Origin: a virus
Lineage: Duplodnaviria > Caudoviricetes
Reading direction: 5' to 3' (one strand)
DNA: 64,000 nt
IMG/VR virus record: IMGVR_UViG_3300044961_000667
In this document: positions 5,422 to 48,872 of the stretch, piece after piece
How the letters are laid out: every line of letters begins with the position of its first letter
How positions within the stretch are numbered: the stretch's first letter is position 1
Notes under the pieces: generated by a model
Database searches by the model: none
What the model saw: the letters and a program-made list of their open reading frames with translations, nothing else
Told to the model about the DNA's origin: nothing
Position numbers and translations under genes: made by a program

Positions 5422-6210
5422 TCAGAAAGCCTTGTTGCCGTGCTTGAAGCCGCGCGCCCGGTTCTTCTCCAGCTTGGCCGCCACGATGCTCCACATGCGG
5501 TTGGCCGGGTCGAGCTTGTCGCACAGCGCCTCGCAGTCGACGATCAGCCGACCGAACTCTCGCTGCATCTCCTGCGCGTTCGGCGTCTCCGGCTTCCGGT
5601 ACGCCTCCATCAGCCGGAACGACGGCATCACCACCAGCCGCATCACCTGGGCGTAGAAGTGCTCCATCGAGAAGAGCCGCAGGTCGCGCTCCACCTTGTG
5701 CACCCCGACTCGCGTCAGCCCCGTGATGTTGTAGTACGCCAGCTGCGGATTCATCTCCAGCTTCCGCATCAGGTGCAGCACCCGAATCACCACGTCGGCG
5801 AACTCGATCTGCATCCGCTTCACCCACTCCGCCGTCGGCACCGGCTCACCATTCTCGCCGACCTGGCCGACCTCGAACTCCTCGCACGCTTCCGACGCCT
5901 CGCTGGCGCACAGGGCGAACTTCATCCCCAGCTCCAGCTTGTTGCTGAGATCGATGGTCCACCCGTTCATCTCGTTCACTTCCGTCACTTCGTTCGCGAT
6001 CTCGACGAGATTCACGCCAACGGTCGATTCGTTCTGCACTGGCACCTCCAGAGGATGTTGGACTTCCCACGGGAAACAACGAGCCAGCTGCGGGAAGGTC
6101 AGCCGGCTCAACATCTCGTTCTGTTGAGCCCTGCTGCTCCGCGAGTACAGGAGCTTCAGCTGCTCATCCGAGACTGCGCTCAGGTCCTGGGAAGCGTCTT
6201 CTTGGCCCAT
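5422..6210 (-). CDS. MazG-like NTP pyrophosphohydrolase
   Basis: SEASEACEEFE...EFADVVIRVLHL acidic motif; degenerate second half. Confidence 0.7.
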   Translation of the reverse strand: MGQEDASQDLSAVSDEQLKLLYSRSSRAQQNEMLSRLTFPQLARCFPWEVQHPLEVPVQNESTVGVNLVEIANEVTEVNEMNGWTIDLSNKLELGMKFALCASEASEACEEFEVGQVGENGEPVPTAEWVKRMQIEFADVVIRVLHLMRKLEMNPQLAYYNITGLTRVGVHKVERDLRLFSMEHFYAQVMRLVVMPSFRLMEAYRKPETPNAQEMQREFGRLIVDCEALCDKLDPANRMWSIVAAKLEKNRARGFKHGNKAF

Positions 6211-9080
6211 GGCCCGTTGACGACTACGGAATCCTCCGCGCTGTCAACGTCCTCGGGAGCCTCCGCATCAGCCATCTGCTCGTGCAGCTGGCCGAGGACT
6301 TCCGGGTCGAACGCCTCCGCGAGGAAGCGCGAGGGCTCGATGAAGCGACCGAACTTCTCCTGCACATGGGACAGGTGGACCTTGTCCTTCGCCCGCGTGA
6401 TGGCCACGTAGGCCAGCCGCCTCTCTTCCTGAATCTTGTCGGCCGCCATCGACTTGATGTGCGGCAGCATCCCTTCGCCCCAGCCCACGCCGAACACCCA
6501 CGTGAACTCCAGGCCCTTGGAGCGGTGGATCGTCATCAGCTTCACGGTGTCGCTGGAGAGCTGCGCCTCCTTGTCCTTCACCGTGCTCGCCTCGGCGATG
6601 AACTCCATGAACTCCTCGTACGTCCCGTACTGGCGAGCGATCTCAATCAGCTCCCGCACGTTCTCCGCCCGGTCGCTCACCACCTCGCCGCCCCGTTCCT
6701 CCGGCCGCTCGTAGTGCTGCTGCAGCGTCTGGTCGGGGTGCACCGTGCCGCGAACGTCCAGGATGTCCTCGATGATCTCCACCGGCGTCATCGCCTTCAA
6801 CGAGCGCAGGTGGGCGATGTCGTTCGCCAACGACCTGGCGCCACGCTCCATGTACGGCCGGCTGAAGCGACCGTTCAGCGTGCGCAGGGCATCACCGGTG
6901 CGCCCCTTCGCCGCCCGGTACTCGTTCCACCACGCCTTCCCGAGGTACCGCGGCGGCGTGTTGTACGCCCGCTCCAGCGCATCGTCGTCGTTCGGGTCGC
7001 CGATGAGCTTCAGGTACGCCACCACGTCCATGATCTCCGCCCGCCCGAAGAACGGCGCCGAGCCGTAGATGATGTACGGGATCCCCGTCTTCCGGAGCGC
7101 ATCCTCCACCGGCGCCGACTGGTAGTTGCTGCGGTACAGCACCGCGAAGTCCTTCGGCTTCATCCCGGCGTCGAGGCCAGCCTTGATCTGGTCCTTCACC
7201 CACTGCGCCTCAGCCCCGGTGTCTCGGTGAGACACGATCACCGGCTGCACGCCCTCCTCCCGCTGGGTGAACAGCTCCTTCGGGATGCGCTCGGTGTTCT
7301 TCTCGATCAGCCGATTGGCAGCCCGAACGATGACGTTCACCGAGCGGTAGTTCCTCGCGAGGAACAGCTTCTCGACGTTGGGCCGCTCCGCGAACTCCAG
7401 CATGAACTGCGGGACCGCGCCGCGCCAGGCGTAGATGCCCTGGCAGTTGTGCGTCACAATGCCGTCGGCCACGTAGGTGTGATCATTCTCAACCGTCAAC
7501 GAGTACACCGGGCCGCTGTACGACTCGTGCCTGATGACGAACGGAACGTACAAACTTCCGGTCACCCTGCTTCCATCCACCGACACCGCTTTCGACAGCG
7601 GCAACATCTCCATCCCGTCGAACAAGTTAACAGCCCGAACCACAGTGGGTCGGCGCGTCTGCAGATAGGCTTCGCCTTTCTGCCAGAGCGGATAGTTCAC
7701 ATCCTTGCGGTGGGCCGTCAACGCAGCCGCCGCTGCGTTCCGGTTGCTGCCCAGTTTCGACCAGAAGGCATCAAGCTGATCTTGGCTCAGTCGCAGATCG
7801 TTGGTGCTCGCCCTGAAGCACAAAGTCGGAACACCGAACGACCACGCTGTAACCATCTCGGCGAGAGCCGCCTGGTCTCTCGTGTCGTGAACGCTGAGAA
7901 TCCAAACCGCATCAGCCTTTTCCTGGTTGGCCCGGAGAACCACTCCAATGCGCTTGTGCTGGCTGGCCATTCGACCACTGGTGATGCCGATCCGGTAGTC
8001 GTCGCCGCGCCGCATCATGTAGACAACGTGTTTCTTCAACAGCTCGTCGCCAAACCGAACAACGCAGTGATGGTTCGGCGTGTACCGAGACTCCAACCCG
8101 TCCGGCGTACGAACAACAACCAACTCGCCGACGTGAGGCTTCACCATCACCCTCGACACCACGGAACCAGTTCTACGCAGATGGCTGTGCGCCATATCGT
8201 AGCTCACTACAACGTCTCCCTCGCGCACCTGCTCGATTGGCACCTGCTTCATCTCCGTTGGAACACCTTGCTTTCCCCGTCCCAGCGACTTGTACCGCTG
8301 CGTCACCACCGTCACCATCGTCCCCGGCGGCTGGCAGTCGTCGCCGATCATCATCAGGTTGCCGTCCTTCGTCGCCACCAGCTGAGCCAGCTCGATCTGC
8401 GCCTTGTTGTTGTCCTGGCACTCGTCGACCATCACGTAGCGGTAGCGCTCACGGACCTCCGCCCGCAGCCGCTCGTTCGACGAGAGCAGCTTCCACGCGT
8501 AGTAGAGCATGTCGTCGAAATCGAGCACCCGCTCTTCGTTCTTCCGCTTCTCGTACAGCGAGTAGAAGTCCGACATCGACGTCGCCTGGTGGTCGGACAG
8601 CAGCTGCTGCCGCATCTCCTCCGGGCCCATCAGCGAGTTCTTCGCCTTCGCGATGGCGATGATCACGTCCTCCGGCAGCCACTCCTCCGTGCGGTAGCCG
8701 AGGTCCTTGATGACGTTGATGATCATCGTCTTCTTGTTCTTCAGCACCGTGTAGCCGCCGTACCCGTTGTTCCGCAGCAGCGAGAAGCCGAAGCTGTGGA
8801 ACGTCGAGATCGTCGGCCGGCGCCCTCTCACGCCGAGGTTCTCCATCAGGTCGTCGAGGCGACCGTTCATCTCCTCCGCGGCGTTCTTGGTGAACGTCAC
8901 GGCGAGAATCTGGCTGTCGGGGATGCCGCGGGCGAGGAGAGCCACCACGCGGTGGATCAAGCACCTCGTCTTCCCCGCGCCTGGGCCGGCAATCACCAGG
9001 CACGGTCCATCGAAGTGCTCCGCCACCTTCTGTTGGGCCTCGTCGAGACCCGACAGAACCTTCTGCAGATCGTTGCTCAT
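6180..9080 (-). CDS. UvrD/PcrA/Rep family SF1 helicase containing an intein
   Basis: AGPGAGKT, VTFTKNAA, TFHSF, VDECQD, GDD/CQGIYAWRGA, NYRS, VLYRSN, TIHRSKGLEF, EERRLAYVAITRAK; RBS before ATG 9080. Confidence 0.93.
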   Translation of the reverse strand: MSNDLQKVLSGLDEAQQKVAEHFDGPCLVIAGPGAGKTRCLIHRVVALLARGIPDSQILAVTFTKNAAEEMNGRLDDLMENLGVRGRRPTISTFHSFGFSLLRNNGYGGYTVLKNKKTMIINVIKDLGYRTEEWLPEDVIIAIAKAKNSLMGPEEMRQQLLSDHQATSMSDFYSLYEKRKNEERVLDFDDMLYYAWKLLSSNERLRAEVRERYRYVMVDECQDNNKAQIELAQLVATKDGNLMMIGDDCQPPGTMVTVVTQRYKSLGRGKQGVPTEMKQVPIEQVREGDVVVSYDMAHSHLRRTGSVVSRVMVKPHVGELVVVRTPDGLESRYTPNHHCVVRFGDELLKKHVVYMMRRGDDYRIGITSGRMASQHKRIGVVLRANQEKADAVWILSVHDTRDQAALAEMVTAWSFGVPTLCFRASTNDLRLSQDQLDAFWSKLGSNRNAAAAALTAHRKDVNYPLWQKGEAYLQTRRPTVVRAVNLFDGMEMLPLSKAVSVDGSRVTGSLYVPFVIRHESYSGPVYSLTVENDHTYVADGIVTHNCQGIYAWRGAVPQFMLEFAERPNVEKLFLARNYRSVNVIVRAANRLIEKNTERIPKELFTQREEGVQPVIVSHRDTGAEAQWVKDQIKAGLDAGMKPKDFAVLYRSNYQSAPVEDALRKTGIPYIIYGSAPFFGRAEIMDVVAYLKLIGDPNDDDALERAYNTPPRYLGKAWWNEYRAAKGRTGDALRTLNGRFSRPYMERGARSLANDIAHLRSLKAMTPVEIIEDILDVRGTVHPDQTLQQHYERPEERGGEVVSDRAENVRELIEIARQYGTYEEFMEFIAEASTVKDKEAQLSSDTVKLMTIHRSKGLEFTWVFGVGWGEGMLPHIKSMAADKIQEERRLAYVAITRAKDKVHLSHVQEKFGRFIEPSRFLAEAFDPEVLGQLHEQMADAEAPEDVDSAEDSVVVNGPWAKKTLPRT
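7446..8336 (-). mobile_element. intein (297 aa) with GIY-YIG-like endonuclease in helicase motif III
   Basis: Starts CQPPGT, ends VYSLTVENDHTYVADGIVTHN, followed by Cys; internal VVYMMRRGDDYRIGIT; AT-richer codons. Confidence 0.9.
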
Positions 9081-9163
9081 TTGCTCTCCCTTGGTGCCAC
9101 CTGTTGCCCGTTGAGTGTCGGGGTCACCACCAAGCAGATGAAACCACCGTTTCTCCTGCTTTG

Positions 9164-10027
9164 TCAAGAGGAAGGCGGCTCCGGCGGCTTGTAGTTCAGC
9201 ACCACGATCTCCTCGACATCTCCGCGCTTCTCGTAGTGCGTGTTGATCGACCGCGGCGCCGTCACCGTCCGCACCTCGAACTTCGAGTACAGCGCCTTCA
9301 CCTTCGGGTGACTGCTGTTCGACAGCATCACCTTGACGCCGCGGTCCGTCAGGCGGGAGTACGTCTCCGCCAGCTTCTTGTGGTCGAGCAGCGAGAACTC
9401 ACCCGCGGTGTACGCCGTGAAGCTCGACGTCTTCGACACCGGAAGGTACGGCGGGTCCATGTAGACGAAGTCGCCTTCCTCCGCGTGCGTCAGCACCGCC
9501 TGGTAGGTCACCACGTCCAGCATCGTCCCCCGCAGAGCCTCGGAGCACGCCCGCAGGTTGTCGCGATCGCACACGGTCGGACGGTTCTTGAACTTGCCAG
9601 GCGGGACGTTGAAGCGGCCCTTGTCGTTGACCCGGTACAGGCCGTTGTAGCCCGTCTTGTTCAGGAAGATCATCCGCGCCGCACGCTGCTCTTCGGTCAA
9701 CGACCGCGGCATCTGCTCGCGCACCGAGTAGTAGTACTCGTCCCCGCCGGCAGTCCACGCCTGGTCGTGCTCGTCGAGCCGCTTCACCACGTCCTCGACC
9801 CGGTCTCGCACCATCTTGTACGACCAGATCAGCTCCTCGTTGACGTCGGAGAGCACCACCCGCTTGGCCGCCTTGAGCTTCCCGGCCGCAGCCAGCGAGT
9901 AGAACATCGCCCCTCCGCCGAGGAACGGCTCCATGTACGTGCCGAACTCGGCAGGTAGCATCCCGGCCAGGGTCTCCAACAACGCACCCTTGCCACCAAC
10001 CCACTTCAGAAACGGTCTCGCGCTCAA
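9164..10027 (-). CDS. dam: DNA adenine methyltransferase (Dam/D12 family)
   Basis: PFLKWVGGK, EPFLGGGA, DVNEELI, FLNKTGYNGLYRVN, YMDPPY. Confidence 0.92.
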   Translation of the reverse strand: MSARPFLKWVGGKGALLETLAGMLPAEFGTYMEPFLGGGAMFYSLAAAGKLKAAKRVVLSDVNEELIWSYKMVRDRVEDVVKRLDEHDQAWTAGGDEYYYSVREQMPRSLTEEQRAARMIFLNKTGYNGLYRVNDKGRFNVPPGKFKNRPTVCDRDNLRACSEALRGTMLDVVTYQAVLTHAEEGDFVYMDPPYLPVSKTSSFTAYTAGEFSLLDHKKLAETYSRLTDRGVKVMLSNSSHPKVKALYSKFEVRTVTAPRSINTHYEKRGDVEEIVVLNYKPPEPPSS

Positions 10028-45766: not shown

Positions 45767-46105
45767 CTACAGCCCCTTCTTCGAGCGGATGCGCACCGCG
45801 ATCTGGGTAAACGGCTTCTTCGGAGTGATGTCGCAGACGCCGATCTTTGGGTCCTCGAAGTCGATCCTCGTGTCGACGATCTCGCCCTTGGCCGACGTCA
45901 GGCCATCGCCATCACCGGCGCCAAAGCCGCGGTTGACGATGATGTGCGCCCAGTACGTGCCGTCGTCGCAGCGAGCCACCTCGATCGCCCCGCCGGGAAA
46001 CTCGATGATGTGCTGCGACGACTCGATCTTCTTCGTCTTGTCTCCCAGCAGCTTCACCTTCCTGGGCGCCTTGTCGATGGTCCAGTTCTTCGCCGTGTCA
46101 GCCAT
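45767..46105 (-). CDS. hypothetical protein
   Basis: AGGAG RBS; HIIEFPGGAIEVARC. Confidence 0.6.
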   Translation of the reverse strand: MADTAKNWTIDKAPRKVKLLGDKTKKIESSQHIIEFPGGAIEVARCDDGTYWAHIIVNRGFGAGDGDGLTSAKGEIVDTRIDFEDPKIGVCDITPKKPFTQIAVRIRSKKGL

Positions 46106-46598
46106 GTTCGCTCTCCTGTTTGGTCGCCCAATTTTCTTTCGACAGCACTCTCTGGACCTGGGTGTGACTGACGCCAAACTCTCGTCCAAGACTGGCCATC
46201 GAACGACCGCCCAGCCCGTAAAGCAGCCTGACCCGATCAACATCGGCCGCCGCCAATTTGGCCCGTCCATTGGCTTCACCCGGAGACGGTCTTCCGGCCT
46301 TGGTTCGCCCTTTCCTGTTTCGATCTGCGGCGTTGTCGGCCTTCGACCCAAGGAAGAGGTGTCTCGGATTCACACATGGCCTGTTGTCGCAACGATGAAG
46401 CACGCAAAGGCCGGGCGGAATCTCCCCATTCGACAAACGCCACGCGACACGATGCGCATACTCCCACCCGCTTCCGGCTGGGCCCTTGCCGATCTTCCCG
46501 TAGCCGGTGGACTTCTGAATCGAACCAGTCCACAGCCAGCATTCATCAATGCCGCGACGGACGAACTTGGCCTCGAACCTCTGAGACAGATTCGTCAT
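46098..46598 (-). mobile_element. HNH homing endonuclease with C-terminal HTH
   Basis: CWLWTG, YAHRVAW, VLHRCDNRPCVNPRHLFLGSKADN, LGREFGVSHT. Confidence 0.9.
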
Positions 46599-48051: not shown

Positions 48052-48243
48052 TCACAGCGGTGACTTTGCCTTCCTCTCGATCTTGGTCTCGACGCCAATC
48101 GTCGACGCACAGCTGCAGTGCCTCAGCTCCAGCTTGTAGTGCTCGGCGTCTTCCTCGGTCAGGATCTCCCCGCAGAGCGGCAGCTTCAGCCACTCCTCTT
48201 CGGAGAACGTCCTGCCGCAGCTGCACGTCTTGAACGTCTTCAT
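48052..48243 (-). CDS. small zinc-finger protein
   Basis: CSCG...CSC. Confidence 0.55.
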   Translation of the reverse strand: MKTFKTCSCGRTFSEEEWLKLPLCGEILTEEDAEHYKLELRHCSCASTIGVETKIERKAKSPL

Positions 48244-48266
48244 CGAAGAGCCCCCTTCCATCGAAG

Positions 48267-48384
48267 GATCACCTGCCGATTTGAACGGCAGTCCCCACCC
48301 AGTTGGGGCGATTTCGAGGGCGCCTGACCACTGGGAAAGGGCGCTCCCCTACTCTCACGGATGTCCACTCCGTCTTCGGTGATC
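48267..48384 (-). ncRNA. tRNA-like structured RNA (not a canonical tRNA)
   Basis: 7-bp acceptor-like stem GATCACC/GGTGATC stacked on a 5-bp T arm TGCCG-TTCAAAT-CGGCA; D-like arm; two further hairpins whose loops (CCCAGT, ACTGGG) are complementary. Confidence 0.55.
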
Positions 48385-48398
48385 ATTTTCAGCCAGCC

Positions 48399-48872
48399 TC
48401 AGAAGTCGGCCTCGCGGGCCTCGTCGATCTTCGAGTCGATGTAGTCGTCGTACGCGGCCTCGGCTGCTTCCTGGGCCGCTTCGATCGCACGCTCCTGCAT
48501 CTCCTCCAGCAGCTTCTTGGGCGTGTTCTTCTCCAAGTCCTCACGCCGGCGCACGCGCACGTACTTGCCGCGGCGGTTCGACGGGATCAACCCCGCGTTC
48601 TCCGGCGGCACTGGGAAGCTGGCCTCCGGAGACTCGTACCTCGGGGTTGGCGAGGGCACGAACTCCAGCTGCCAGATCCCCGTGATGTCGACATCATCGG
48701 GCTCAGGCGGGTAGCAGTCCTCAGGCGGACCAGACGTTCGACCCGGCGAGCCAAACGCCACGTCGGCTTCGACCTCCAGCTCGACCTCCACCATCTCGCC
48801 GTTCACCGTCTCCTCGATGGTGGTCGAGAACTCGACGCTGTGGCTCCCCTTGCGCTGGAACTTCTTCACCAT
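48399..48872 (-). CDS. acidic hypothetical protein
   Basis: GSPGRTSGPPEDCYPPEP motif. Confidence 0.6.
   Translation of the reverse strand: MVKKFQRKGSHSVEFSTTIEETVNGEMVEVELEVEADVAFGSPGRTSGPPEDCYPPEPDDVDITGIWQLEFVPSPTPRYESPEASFPVPPENAGLIPSNRRGKYVRVRRREDLEKNTPKKLLEEMQERAIEAAQEAAEAAYDDYIDSKIDEAREADF

Follow-up and report, generated by a model that had tools for sequence, protein, structure and literature searches.

Non-decoding RNAs with the shape of a transfer RNA (tRNA) are known from organelles, animals and a few viruses, and in tailed phages the best-known cases are RNAC and RNAD of T4, which have stayed unexplained for fifty years. Here we describe an element of this kind on the minus strand of the IMG/VR record IMGVR_UViG_3300044961_000667 (Duplodnaviria; Caudoviricetes), of which a stretch of 64,000 nucleotides (nt), hereafter the window, was analyzed. 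The element lies at window positions 48384-48267 (118 nt, or 119 nt with the discriminator C at 48266), between two protein-coding genes. Its predicted fold is a complete class II (long-variable-arm) tRNA scaffold without an anticodon, and it is not a decoding tRNA. We tentatively favour the reading that it is a module processed by the ribonucleases (RNases) P and Z within a polycistronic phage messenger RNA (mRNA), comparable to the t-elements of plant mitochondria or to T4 RNAC/RNAD.

The function of RNAC and RNAD is unknown (PMC3014915, PMC9697503), and Rfam holds no family for rnaC or rnaD. They are the phage RNAs that the element most resembles, both in size (139 nt for RNAC, or species 1, and 119 nt for RNAD, or species 2) and, in the case of RNAC, in architecture, with a canonical T-arm, a stem resembling an acceptor and, where the variable arm would be, a long hairpin, but no anticodon arm. 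The tRNA-like 3' domain of rnaC (L018:2909-3047) is made of the acceptor strands ACGGAACG and CGUUUCGU, the T-arm CCGGG-UUCGAAU-CCCGG and a long variable-type hairpin, and it gives a weak match to the Rfam model of tRNA-Sec (17.5 bits). However, the T4 RNAs lie inside a tRNA gene cluster, whereas the element stands alone between protein genes with no tRNA gene in 64 kb; moreover, RNAC is extended at its 5' end, and no clear T-arm is apparent in RNAD. Our covariance model R1 found no match in T4 positions 68000-76000, and the likeness to rnaC is one of general architecture only. Judged by location or by sequence, the element is not a member of the RNAC/RNAD group.

Concerning its mode of action, the element may by analogy work most like the t-elements (PMC1920247) and the mascRNA and herpesvirus tRNA-like modules (PMC8457004, PMC4337559). 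The t-elements are tRNA-like mRNA processing signals that guide the RNase P and RNase Z cuts creating mRNA ends, and that can persist as small RNAs with an added C or CCA (PMC1920247). The element shares with them a non-canonical cloverleaf, a conserved T-arm motif and a position within an mRNA precursor at the boundary of an open reading frame (ORF), but t-elements are organellar, while the element is phage-borne with its processing predicted only, is larger, and combines a complete class II scaffold with an elaborate middle arm. The mascRNA, menRNA and MHV68 (murine gammaherpesvirus 68) tRNA-like RNAs are non-decoding modules excised by RNase P and/or RNase Z, which sets the ends of the neighbouring RNA (PMC8457004, PMC11693755, PMC4337559). 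These too are tRNA-shaped and embedded in longer transcripts; they differ from the element in being eukaryotic or from eukaryotic viruses, in their smaller size and reduced anticodon arms, and in the absence of any sequence relation.

The bacterial Y RNA YrlA is likewise non-decoding and has a tRNA-like elbow of T-arm and D-arm. The two ends of YrlA pair on its anticodon side into the stem that binds Ro, and its acceptor mimic is closed, whereas the ends of the element make its acceptor stem, and Rfam gave no match. Some large phages with genes for Ro-type proteins carry such Y RNAs as well (PMC7824862). Compared with class II tRNAs themselves (Leu, Ser, bacterial Tyr, Sec), the element has the same 7-bp acceptor, 5-bp T-stem with TTCAAAT, GG in the D-arm and 5-bp variable hairpin, but it lacks the 5-bp/7-nt anticodon arm, has a 4-nt connector, is 118 nt long and goes undetected by ARAGORN and Rfam.

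Read on the minus strand, the first half of the element is GATCACC-GAAG-ACGG-AGTGGACAT-CCGT-GAGAGTA-GGGG-A-GCGCC-CTTTCCCAGTGGTCA-GGCGC-CCTC-GAAATCG, and the second half is CCCCA-ACTGGG-TGGGG-AC-TGCCG-TTCAAAT-CGGCA-GGTGATC, then C, then TTC. The acceptor 5' strand GATCACC (48378-48384) is directly preceded by an A-rich leader, GAAAAT, which places a U at position -1, and it forms seven of seven Watson-Crick pairs with 48273-48267. The acceptor 3' strand GGTGATC and the discriminator C span 48266-48273; the bases beyond GGTGATC are CTTC and, as the original prediction had noted, CCA is not encoded. As in canonical tRNAs, the 7-bp acceptor stacks on a 5-bp T-stem with a GTTCRANYC-type loop. This T-arm, TGCCG-TTCAAAT-CGGCA (48274-48290, pair probability 0.96-1.0), is preceded by AC, which puts a C at position 48, and carries the elbow letters U54 U55 C56, closed by G53:C61. 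The connector GAAG (4 nt) and the D-arm ACGG-AGTGGACAT-CCGT together occupy 48357-48377, with the D-arm at 48373-48357. Equivalents of A14, G15, G18 and G19 and the pair C11:G24 are all present, and pair probabilities in mRNA context are 0.79-0.99; the D-arm fits the tRNA pattern, yet the connector between acceptor and D-arm is 4 nt long versus 2 nt in canonical tRNA.

What departs from a tRNA is the arm in the anticodon position (48309-48356), a GCGCC/GGCGC hairpin extended by GGGG/CCTC (48349-48316). From its base outwards it consists of GA/UC (2 bp), an internal loop, GGGG/CCUC (4 bp, one of them G:U), an A bulge, GCGCC/GGCGC (5 bp) and the 15-nt loop CUUUCCCAGUGGUCA, forming an interrupted 11-bp arm. 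No 7-nt loop can be drawn at the anticodon position, and a canonical 5-bp/7-nt anticodon arm with U33 and a purine at 37 is absent; with the GGGG/CCUC and GA/UC extensions in place, the junction linkers approach those of class II tRNAs. From this predicted fold, an oversized hairpin takes the place of the anticodon arm and the element cannot decode. The variable-arm position is filled by the hairpin CCCCA-ACUGGG-UGGGG (48293-48308). Every helix named in the original prediction (acceptor, T-arm, D-like arm, GCGCC hairpin and variable hairpin) is indeed present on the minus strand and entirely Watson-Crick; across the element we count 32 intact pairs and one G:U.

The same prediction had proposed a pairing between the loops of these last two hairpins, and its complementarity is exact: CCCAGU in the 15-nt loop (48335-48330) matches the variable loop ACUGGG (48303-48298), with a duplex energy of -8.4 kcal/mol. 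The chance of such a 6-nt loop-loop complement is about 0.003-0.005 for this loop pair, a suggestive value, but one for a feature chosen post hoc. The two segments might form a kissing pair or, possibly, an ordinary helix in an alternative fold.

The element matches no ordinary tRNA, transfer-messenger RNA (tmRNA) or Rfam family with ARAGORN and Rfam, two of the checks that had been proposed for it. ARAGORN found 0 tRNA or tmRNA genes in the window and nothing usable in the element region with lowered thresholds, in tmRNA mode at a 70% threshold or in mitochondrial mode. Rfam gave no match at gathering score, and up to E = 10 it returned noise alone (ar14 and two microRNA models, 13-15 bits) with no tRNA match; curated covariance models of riboswitch and leader families likewise gave no match beyond noise. 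A tmRNA was rejected on the empty results of Rfam and of the tmRNA mode, and on the length of merely 118 nt. With a generic anticodon arm (5 bp, 7-nt loop) substituted in silico for nucleotides 29-74 and the rest left unchanged, ARAGORN at default thresholds called a 91-nt class II tRNA spanning exactly G1 to the discriminator C73. It is therefore the middle arm alone that keeps the element from being a tRNA, and the tRNA mimicry that had been claimed for its acceptor, T-arm, D-arm and variable arm is borne out by this swap.

To gauge chance, we scanned both strands of the window for a strict T-arm, defined as five Watson-Crick pairs, G53:C61 and a TTCRANY loop. A single one was found, and it has the 7/7 Watson-Crick acceptor partner at a tRNA-like distance; 150 first-order Markov windows held a mean of 0.04 T-arms and 0 full minihelices per window. 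Folded in isolation, the 119 nt adopt exactly the cloverleaf as their minimum-energy structure (-49.5 kcal/mol, z = -2.1). A 171-nt context is no more stable than shuffled sequence (z = -0.22), and in a 176-nt mRNA context the cloverleaf (-61.9 kcal/mol) is matched by a fold in which the acceptor 5' strand binds the downstream start-codon region (-62.0 kcal/mol); there the acceptor has a pair probability of only about 0.3, versus 0.8-1.0 for the four inner hairpins.

The position of the element points to its presence inside a transcript. Upstream lies a 157-aa (amino acid) ORF (48399-48872, minus strand), whose stop codon in the window is 13 nt ahead of the acceptor stem. In the second of the two element-bearing alleles described below, (a) and (b), the acceptor begins 4 nt past a stop codon instead of 13. 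On its other side the element ends 23 nt before the next start. Because of this proximity of a stop codon, and because a scan found no promoter- or terminator-like site between the 157-aa ORF and the 63-aa ORF downstream, the element must lie inside a polycistronic unit and be co-transcribed. It is itself non-coding: GC content by codon position across its frame is flat (0.63/0.57/0.59), and in the neighbouring genes GC content at third codon positions (GC3) is 0.82-0.90.

According to the processing reading, the element would be transcribed between the upstream ORF and the 63-aa ORF as part of the polycistronic mRNA, and its acceptor/T-arm stack and D/T elbow would make it a substrate for host tRNA-processing enzymes. 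RNase P would cut between U(-1) and G1 (48385|48384), and RNase Z or an equivalent after the discriminator C (48266), an RNase Z-type cut being proposed because CCA is not encoded. These cuts would part the upstream message from that of the 63-aa gene, shorten a small hairpin over the ribosome-binding site of the latter, and release a tRNA-shaped RNA of about 119 nt able to receive CCA. In this scheme the element would be an accessory feature of one lineage, displaced by an endonuclease VII cassette in sister strains. Bacterial RNase P prefers U at -1 and G1:C72, the acceptor/T-arm stack being sufficient, and RNase Z works on CCA-less precursors. The features of a CCA-less pre-tRNA are found here: U at -1, G1:C72, a 12-bp acceptor/T stack and an intact elbow, together with an A-rich single-stranded leader, no encoded CCA, a U after the discriminator and a polycistronic position. 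RNase P is also known to process other non-tRNA phage RNAs (PMC11143913). If processed, the element would indicate that phages can turn the tRNA-maturation enzymes of the host to dividing up phage messages or producing tRNA mimics. The element offers a clean and testable example: a complete tRNA scaffold that lacks only the anticodon and sits within an mRNA, and for which there are natural alleles that contain it, lack it or have a nuclease gene in its place.

Some RNA data are available. In the RNA-seq run X19, all sampled words of the element were found and just 12% of those of the surrounding kilobase; they belong to a single 168-nt contig of depth 2.9, which extends over 48246-48399 and a further 14 nt of flank from allele (b). 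Such coverage faintly suggests that, as RNA, the element survives longer than its neighbours, but DNA carry-over is also possible. Contigs of three other runs (X15, X16, X17) cover neighbouring genes and not the element, a lack of contig cover that is not evidence; X15 holds allele (c), which has no element.

Several observations weigh against processing. The X19 contig overruns both predicted ends, and may derive from DNA or from unprocessed RNA. The elaborate middle arm and the complementary loops are superfluous for a plain processing signal, and hint at a further, trans-acting role. Strains with allele (c) are entirely without the element, and any function must be dispensable. The cleavage and the stable small RNA are themselves predictions. 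The density of single-nucleotide polymorphisms (SNPs) in the element, 1 in 119, is no different from that of the flanks (about 1.8%); since the strains differ by only about 1.8% overall, the invariance of the element says nothing on constraint. Finally, no diverged homologue was recovered by DNA, protein, pattern or covariance-model searches, and covariation lends no support.

These searches were extensive. No match to the element was obtained with blastn, in near and distant modes, among 50,697 phage records, which also hold no close relative of the window, and exact words gave 0 matches in IMG/VR (25-mer) and in GTDB genomes (23-mer). Model R1 found no second copy in the window, the next best score being 13 bits. 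Loop-pattern scans retrieved chance matches only (70 in IMG/VR, and a further three metagenomic plus one viral). Searching four collections with the flanking proteins yielded near-identical clusters, one 67% relative, whose contig begins inside the 63-aa gene, and one weak 52% partial match; an exhaustive HMMER search of 1.8 billion representatives gave seven matches, six of them new, and in the contexts of four of these the genes are tightly packed with no element. So far, the element appears confined to one near-identical lineage of uncultured phages.

Contigs from other samples that are near-identical to the window distinguish three alleles of the locus. In allele (a) (the window, L002, L008, L009), the element follows the 157-aa gene and precedes the 63-aa gene. 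Allele (b) (L001, L003, L005, L012) has, between the 157-aa gene and the element, a 255-aa ORFan and then a 187-aa DUF6011 gene, with a promoter-like site between these two; the 63-aa gene again comes after the element. In allele (c) (L095/L097, L096), there is no element: the DUF6011 gene is followed by 53 nt, a gene for a 136-aa protein of the endonuclease VII family (PF02945, E = 2.7e-22), 4 nt and the 63-aa gene. This nuclease gene (L095:1156-1623, L096:1206-1673) occupies the site homologous to window 48244-48398. Alleles (a) and (b) differ by a 1425-nt indel at the window junction 48398/48399 (L001:5474-6901). The junction sequence GGCTGGCTGAAAAT (48385-48398, minus strand) contains GGCTGGCTGA, which corresponds to the 10 nt that close the DUF6011 gene in allele (b), its final codons and its stop; because the window retains it, allele (a) is a deletion derivative of (b). 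Despite this indel immediately upstream, the element is identical in eight contigs from different samples save one SNP, C to T at 48316 in L001, which turns a G:C into a G:U and keeps the pairing.

Alleles (b) and (c) are 99-100% identical on both sides, with the exception of two diverged tracts: the last ~48 codons of the DUF6011 gene (about 70% identity), where the outgroup L015 (68% identical) sides with (b), and codons 3-5 of the 63-aa gene, which reads MKAHK in (c) instead of MKTFK. From this pattern, allele (c) probably arose by arrival of a free-standing (homing) nuclease cassette that brought foreign flanks or replacement gene ends and displaced the element. Three alleles with a nuclease cassette swap place the element at a cassette-exchange hotspot, and the existence of element-less sister strains, found in at least two samples and in one RNA run (X15), makes it dispensable. 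Relatives of the endonuclease VII protein are widespread in phages, and we saw no link with tRNA genes.

This mobile setting makes a relic the most serious rival to the processing reading, although we consider it unlikely: the element would descend from a class II tRNA gene in which mobile nuclease cassettes had wiped out or remodelled the anticodon region, leaving a functionless tRNA-shaped pseudogene. The hotspot with its three alleles, the replacement of the element by the endonuclease VII cassette in L095/L096, its absence from more distant relatives and the missing anticodon loop all fit such a history. Decay, on the other hand, sits poorly with the intactness of all 32 pairs and of the nucleotides of the tertiary contacts (G18 G19, U54 U55 C56, G15/C48), with a 'filler' that itself consists of two perfect hairpins with complementary loops, and with a single SNP that keeps pairing; furthermore, a scan of the window found no other tRNA fragments scattered elsewhere. 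A relic would show mobile nuclease cassettes eroding tRNA genes. Either outcome, processed module or relic, would be modest in scope, because the element is so far limited to one uncultured lineage.

Distinctly unlikely, but in line with the excess of structure in the middle arm, is a trans-acting tRNA mimic: a processed and CCA-tailed RNA that would serve as decoy or sponge for host factors reading the acceptor end, the elbow or the long variable arm instead of the anticodon, with tRNA-targeting defence toxins and tRNA-binding enzymes as candidate targets. In its favour are the completeness of the class II scaffold, a middle arm with more structure than processing alone would call for, and the optional presence of the element, which varies among strains as that of anti-defence genes often does. 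T4 provides a parallel in the stable RNAs of unknown function made close to its tRNA genes (PMC3014915, PMC9697503), RNAC having a tRNA-like acceptor and T-arm. Against this, accumulation, CCA addition and a partner are all hypothetical, and no defence-related gene is linked to the locus. In its strict form, as the decoy for anticodon nucleases that the original prediction had suggested, the proposal fails, the element having no anticodon stem-loop to mimic. Less probable again is one specific version, an undescribed phage non-coding RNA with a class II scaffold and a hairpin kissing the variable loop in place of the anticodon arm, which RNase P/Z would excise and which would be CCA-tailed to act in trans as a decoy of acceptor or variable-arm readers, for example of nucleotidyltransferase-type or acceptor-cleaving tRNA toxins of abortive-infection systems. 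Were it true, it would suggest a role for T4 RNAC/RNAD.

The genomic neighbourhood of the element also bears on a possible effect in cis. In every element-bearing copy, it is directly upstream of the 63-aa ORF (48052-48243, minus strand; GC3 0.89), a Cys-rich protein (CSCG...C...CSC). A ribosome-binding site, GAAGGGGG, lies 7 nt upstream of the ATG at 48243, and the small hairpin C-CUUC-GAUG-GAAG-G (48267-48254) overlaps it, as had been predicted for the hairpin CCTTC-GATG-GAAGG over the Shine-Dalgarno sequence. The motif CUUCGAUG is present twice, 18 nt apart (48241-48265, minus strand), the repeat being 9 nt (CCTTCGATG) in some strains; the likely start codon falls within its second copy, which can also base-pair with GAAG and the acceptor 5' strand. 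Two variable strain sites, 48251 and 48249 (three sequence variants), are non-synonymous if the gene is read as 69 aa. Since this variation would change amino acids of the longer reading, 48244-48267, with the small hairpin overlapping the ribosome-binding site, can be taken as a leader, and the gene most likely starts at the ATG 48243 (63 aa) and not at 48261 (69 aa). Gene callers are split between the two starts on other contigs.

A switch acting on this gene is improbable, though it makes use of these repeats. Two partners would compete for the acceptor 5' strand and the adjoining GAAG: the acceptor 3' strand, giving the cloverleaf with the start codon free, and CUUCGAUGA at the start codon, pairing with which would turn translation off. 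The equal stability of the cloverleaf and the alternative fold in uncut mRNA makes a translational effect possible; the low pair probability of the acceptor relative to the inner hairpins, the duplicated motif and the hairpin over the ribosome-binding site are consistent with it. Speaking against it are the z-score of the 171-nt context, given that alternative pairings are common at 63% GC, the lack of an evident ligand or trigger, and the full tRNA scaffold, which a switch does not need. Moreover, the 63-aa gene of allele (c) has a different, simple ribosome-binding site.

Chance stems or a protein-coding ORF offer a very improbable account. GC-rich DNA makes many stems, and a 48-codon ATG frame (48386-48240) spans the element, but the simulations (0/150 minihelices with a perfect acceptor partner) and the codon GC pattern disagree, and we rejected the 48-aa ORF for its flat GC, lack of a ribosome-binding site and overlap with the start of the next gene. 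Hardly credible, finally, is a true decoding tRNA with an intron or insertion in the anticodon arm: the intron mode of ARAGORN does give a tRNA-Ala(ggc) with a 70-nt intron on the window allele, but three of its parts, the acceptor 5' strand, the D-arm and the anticodon stem, are drawn with mismatches from the final stretch of the 157-aa gene, and the call is lost in allele (b), whose flank differs. GATCACC is used by no ARAGORN parse, Rfam gives no tRNA match even at E = 10, and small spliceable introns of ~70 nt are not known from bacterial tRNA genes, the introns of which are group I.

Concerning the protein encoded downstream, the original prediction had regarded the gene as a zinc finger, an identity that our searches did not confirm. 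The protein has five Cys, but no significant match in Pfam or PHROGs; its AlphaFold2 model (pLDDT, predicted local distance difference test, 58) is too low in confidence to use, and the ESM Atlas returned unnamed viral clusters only.

By sequence comparison, this region of the genome is highly plastic. In the sister lineage, L015:1017-4609 holds a DUF6011 protein 68% identical to that of the locus and a homologue of a 196-aa protein (45% identical), and between those two genes the place of the element and of the 63-aa gene is taken by five unrelated ORFs. A second presence/absence cassette lies 1.6 kb downstream, where an HNH endonuclease gene (PF13392; window 46098-46598, minus strand) is present in the window, L002, L012 and L095/L096, and is replaced by unrelated ORFs of 110 aa and 67 aa in L001 and L005.

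Ahead of the DUF6011 gene, we noticed a sigma-70-like site, TTGACG-17-TAGATT with TG before the -10 box (L001:6254-6282; L095:511-539), and, at about 1158 in L095, a similar TTGACGAACGC box that precedes the endonuclease VII gene; both may be early promoters of the phage. The window looks like part of a large phage. All its genes are on one strand, its GC content is 63%, and it encodes DnaB, a UvrD helicase with an intein, an SNF2 helicase, a DNA polymerase III beta clamp and HNH nucleases, together with many ORFans. The UvrD-type helicase (995 aa; window 6180-9167, minus strand) is interrupted at residues 306-574 by the intein, whose match to the intein splicing domain of Pfam falls below threshold (28.5 bits versus a cutoff of 35.8).

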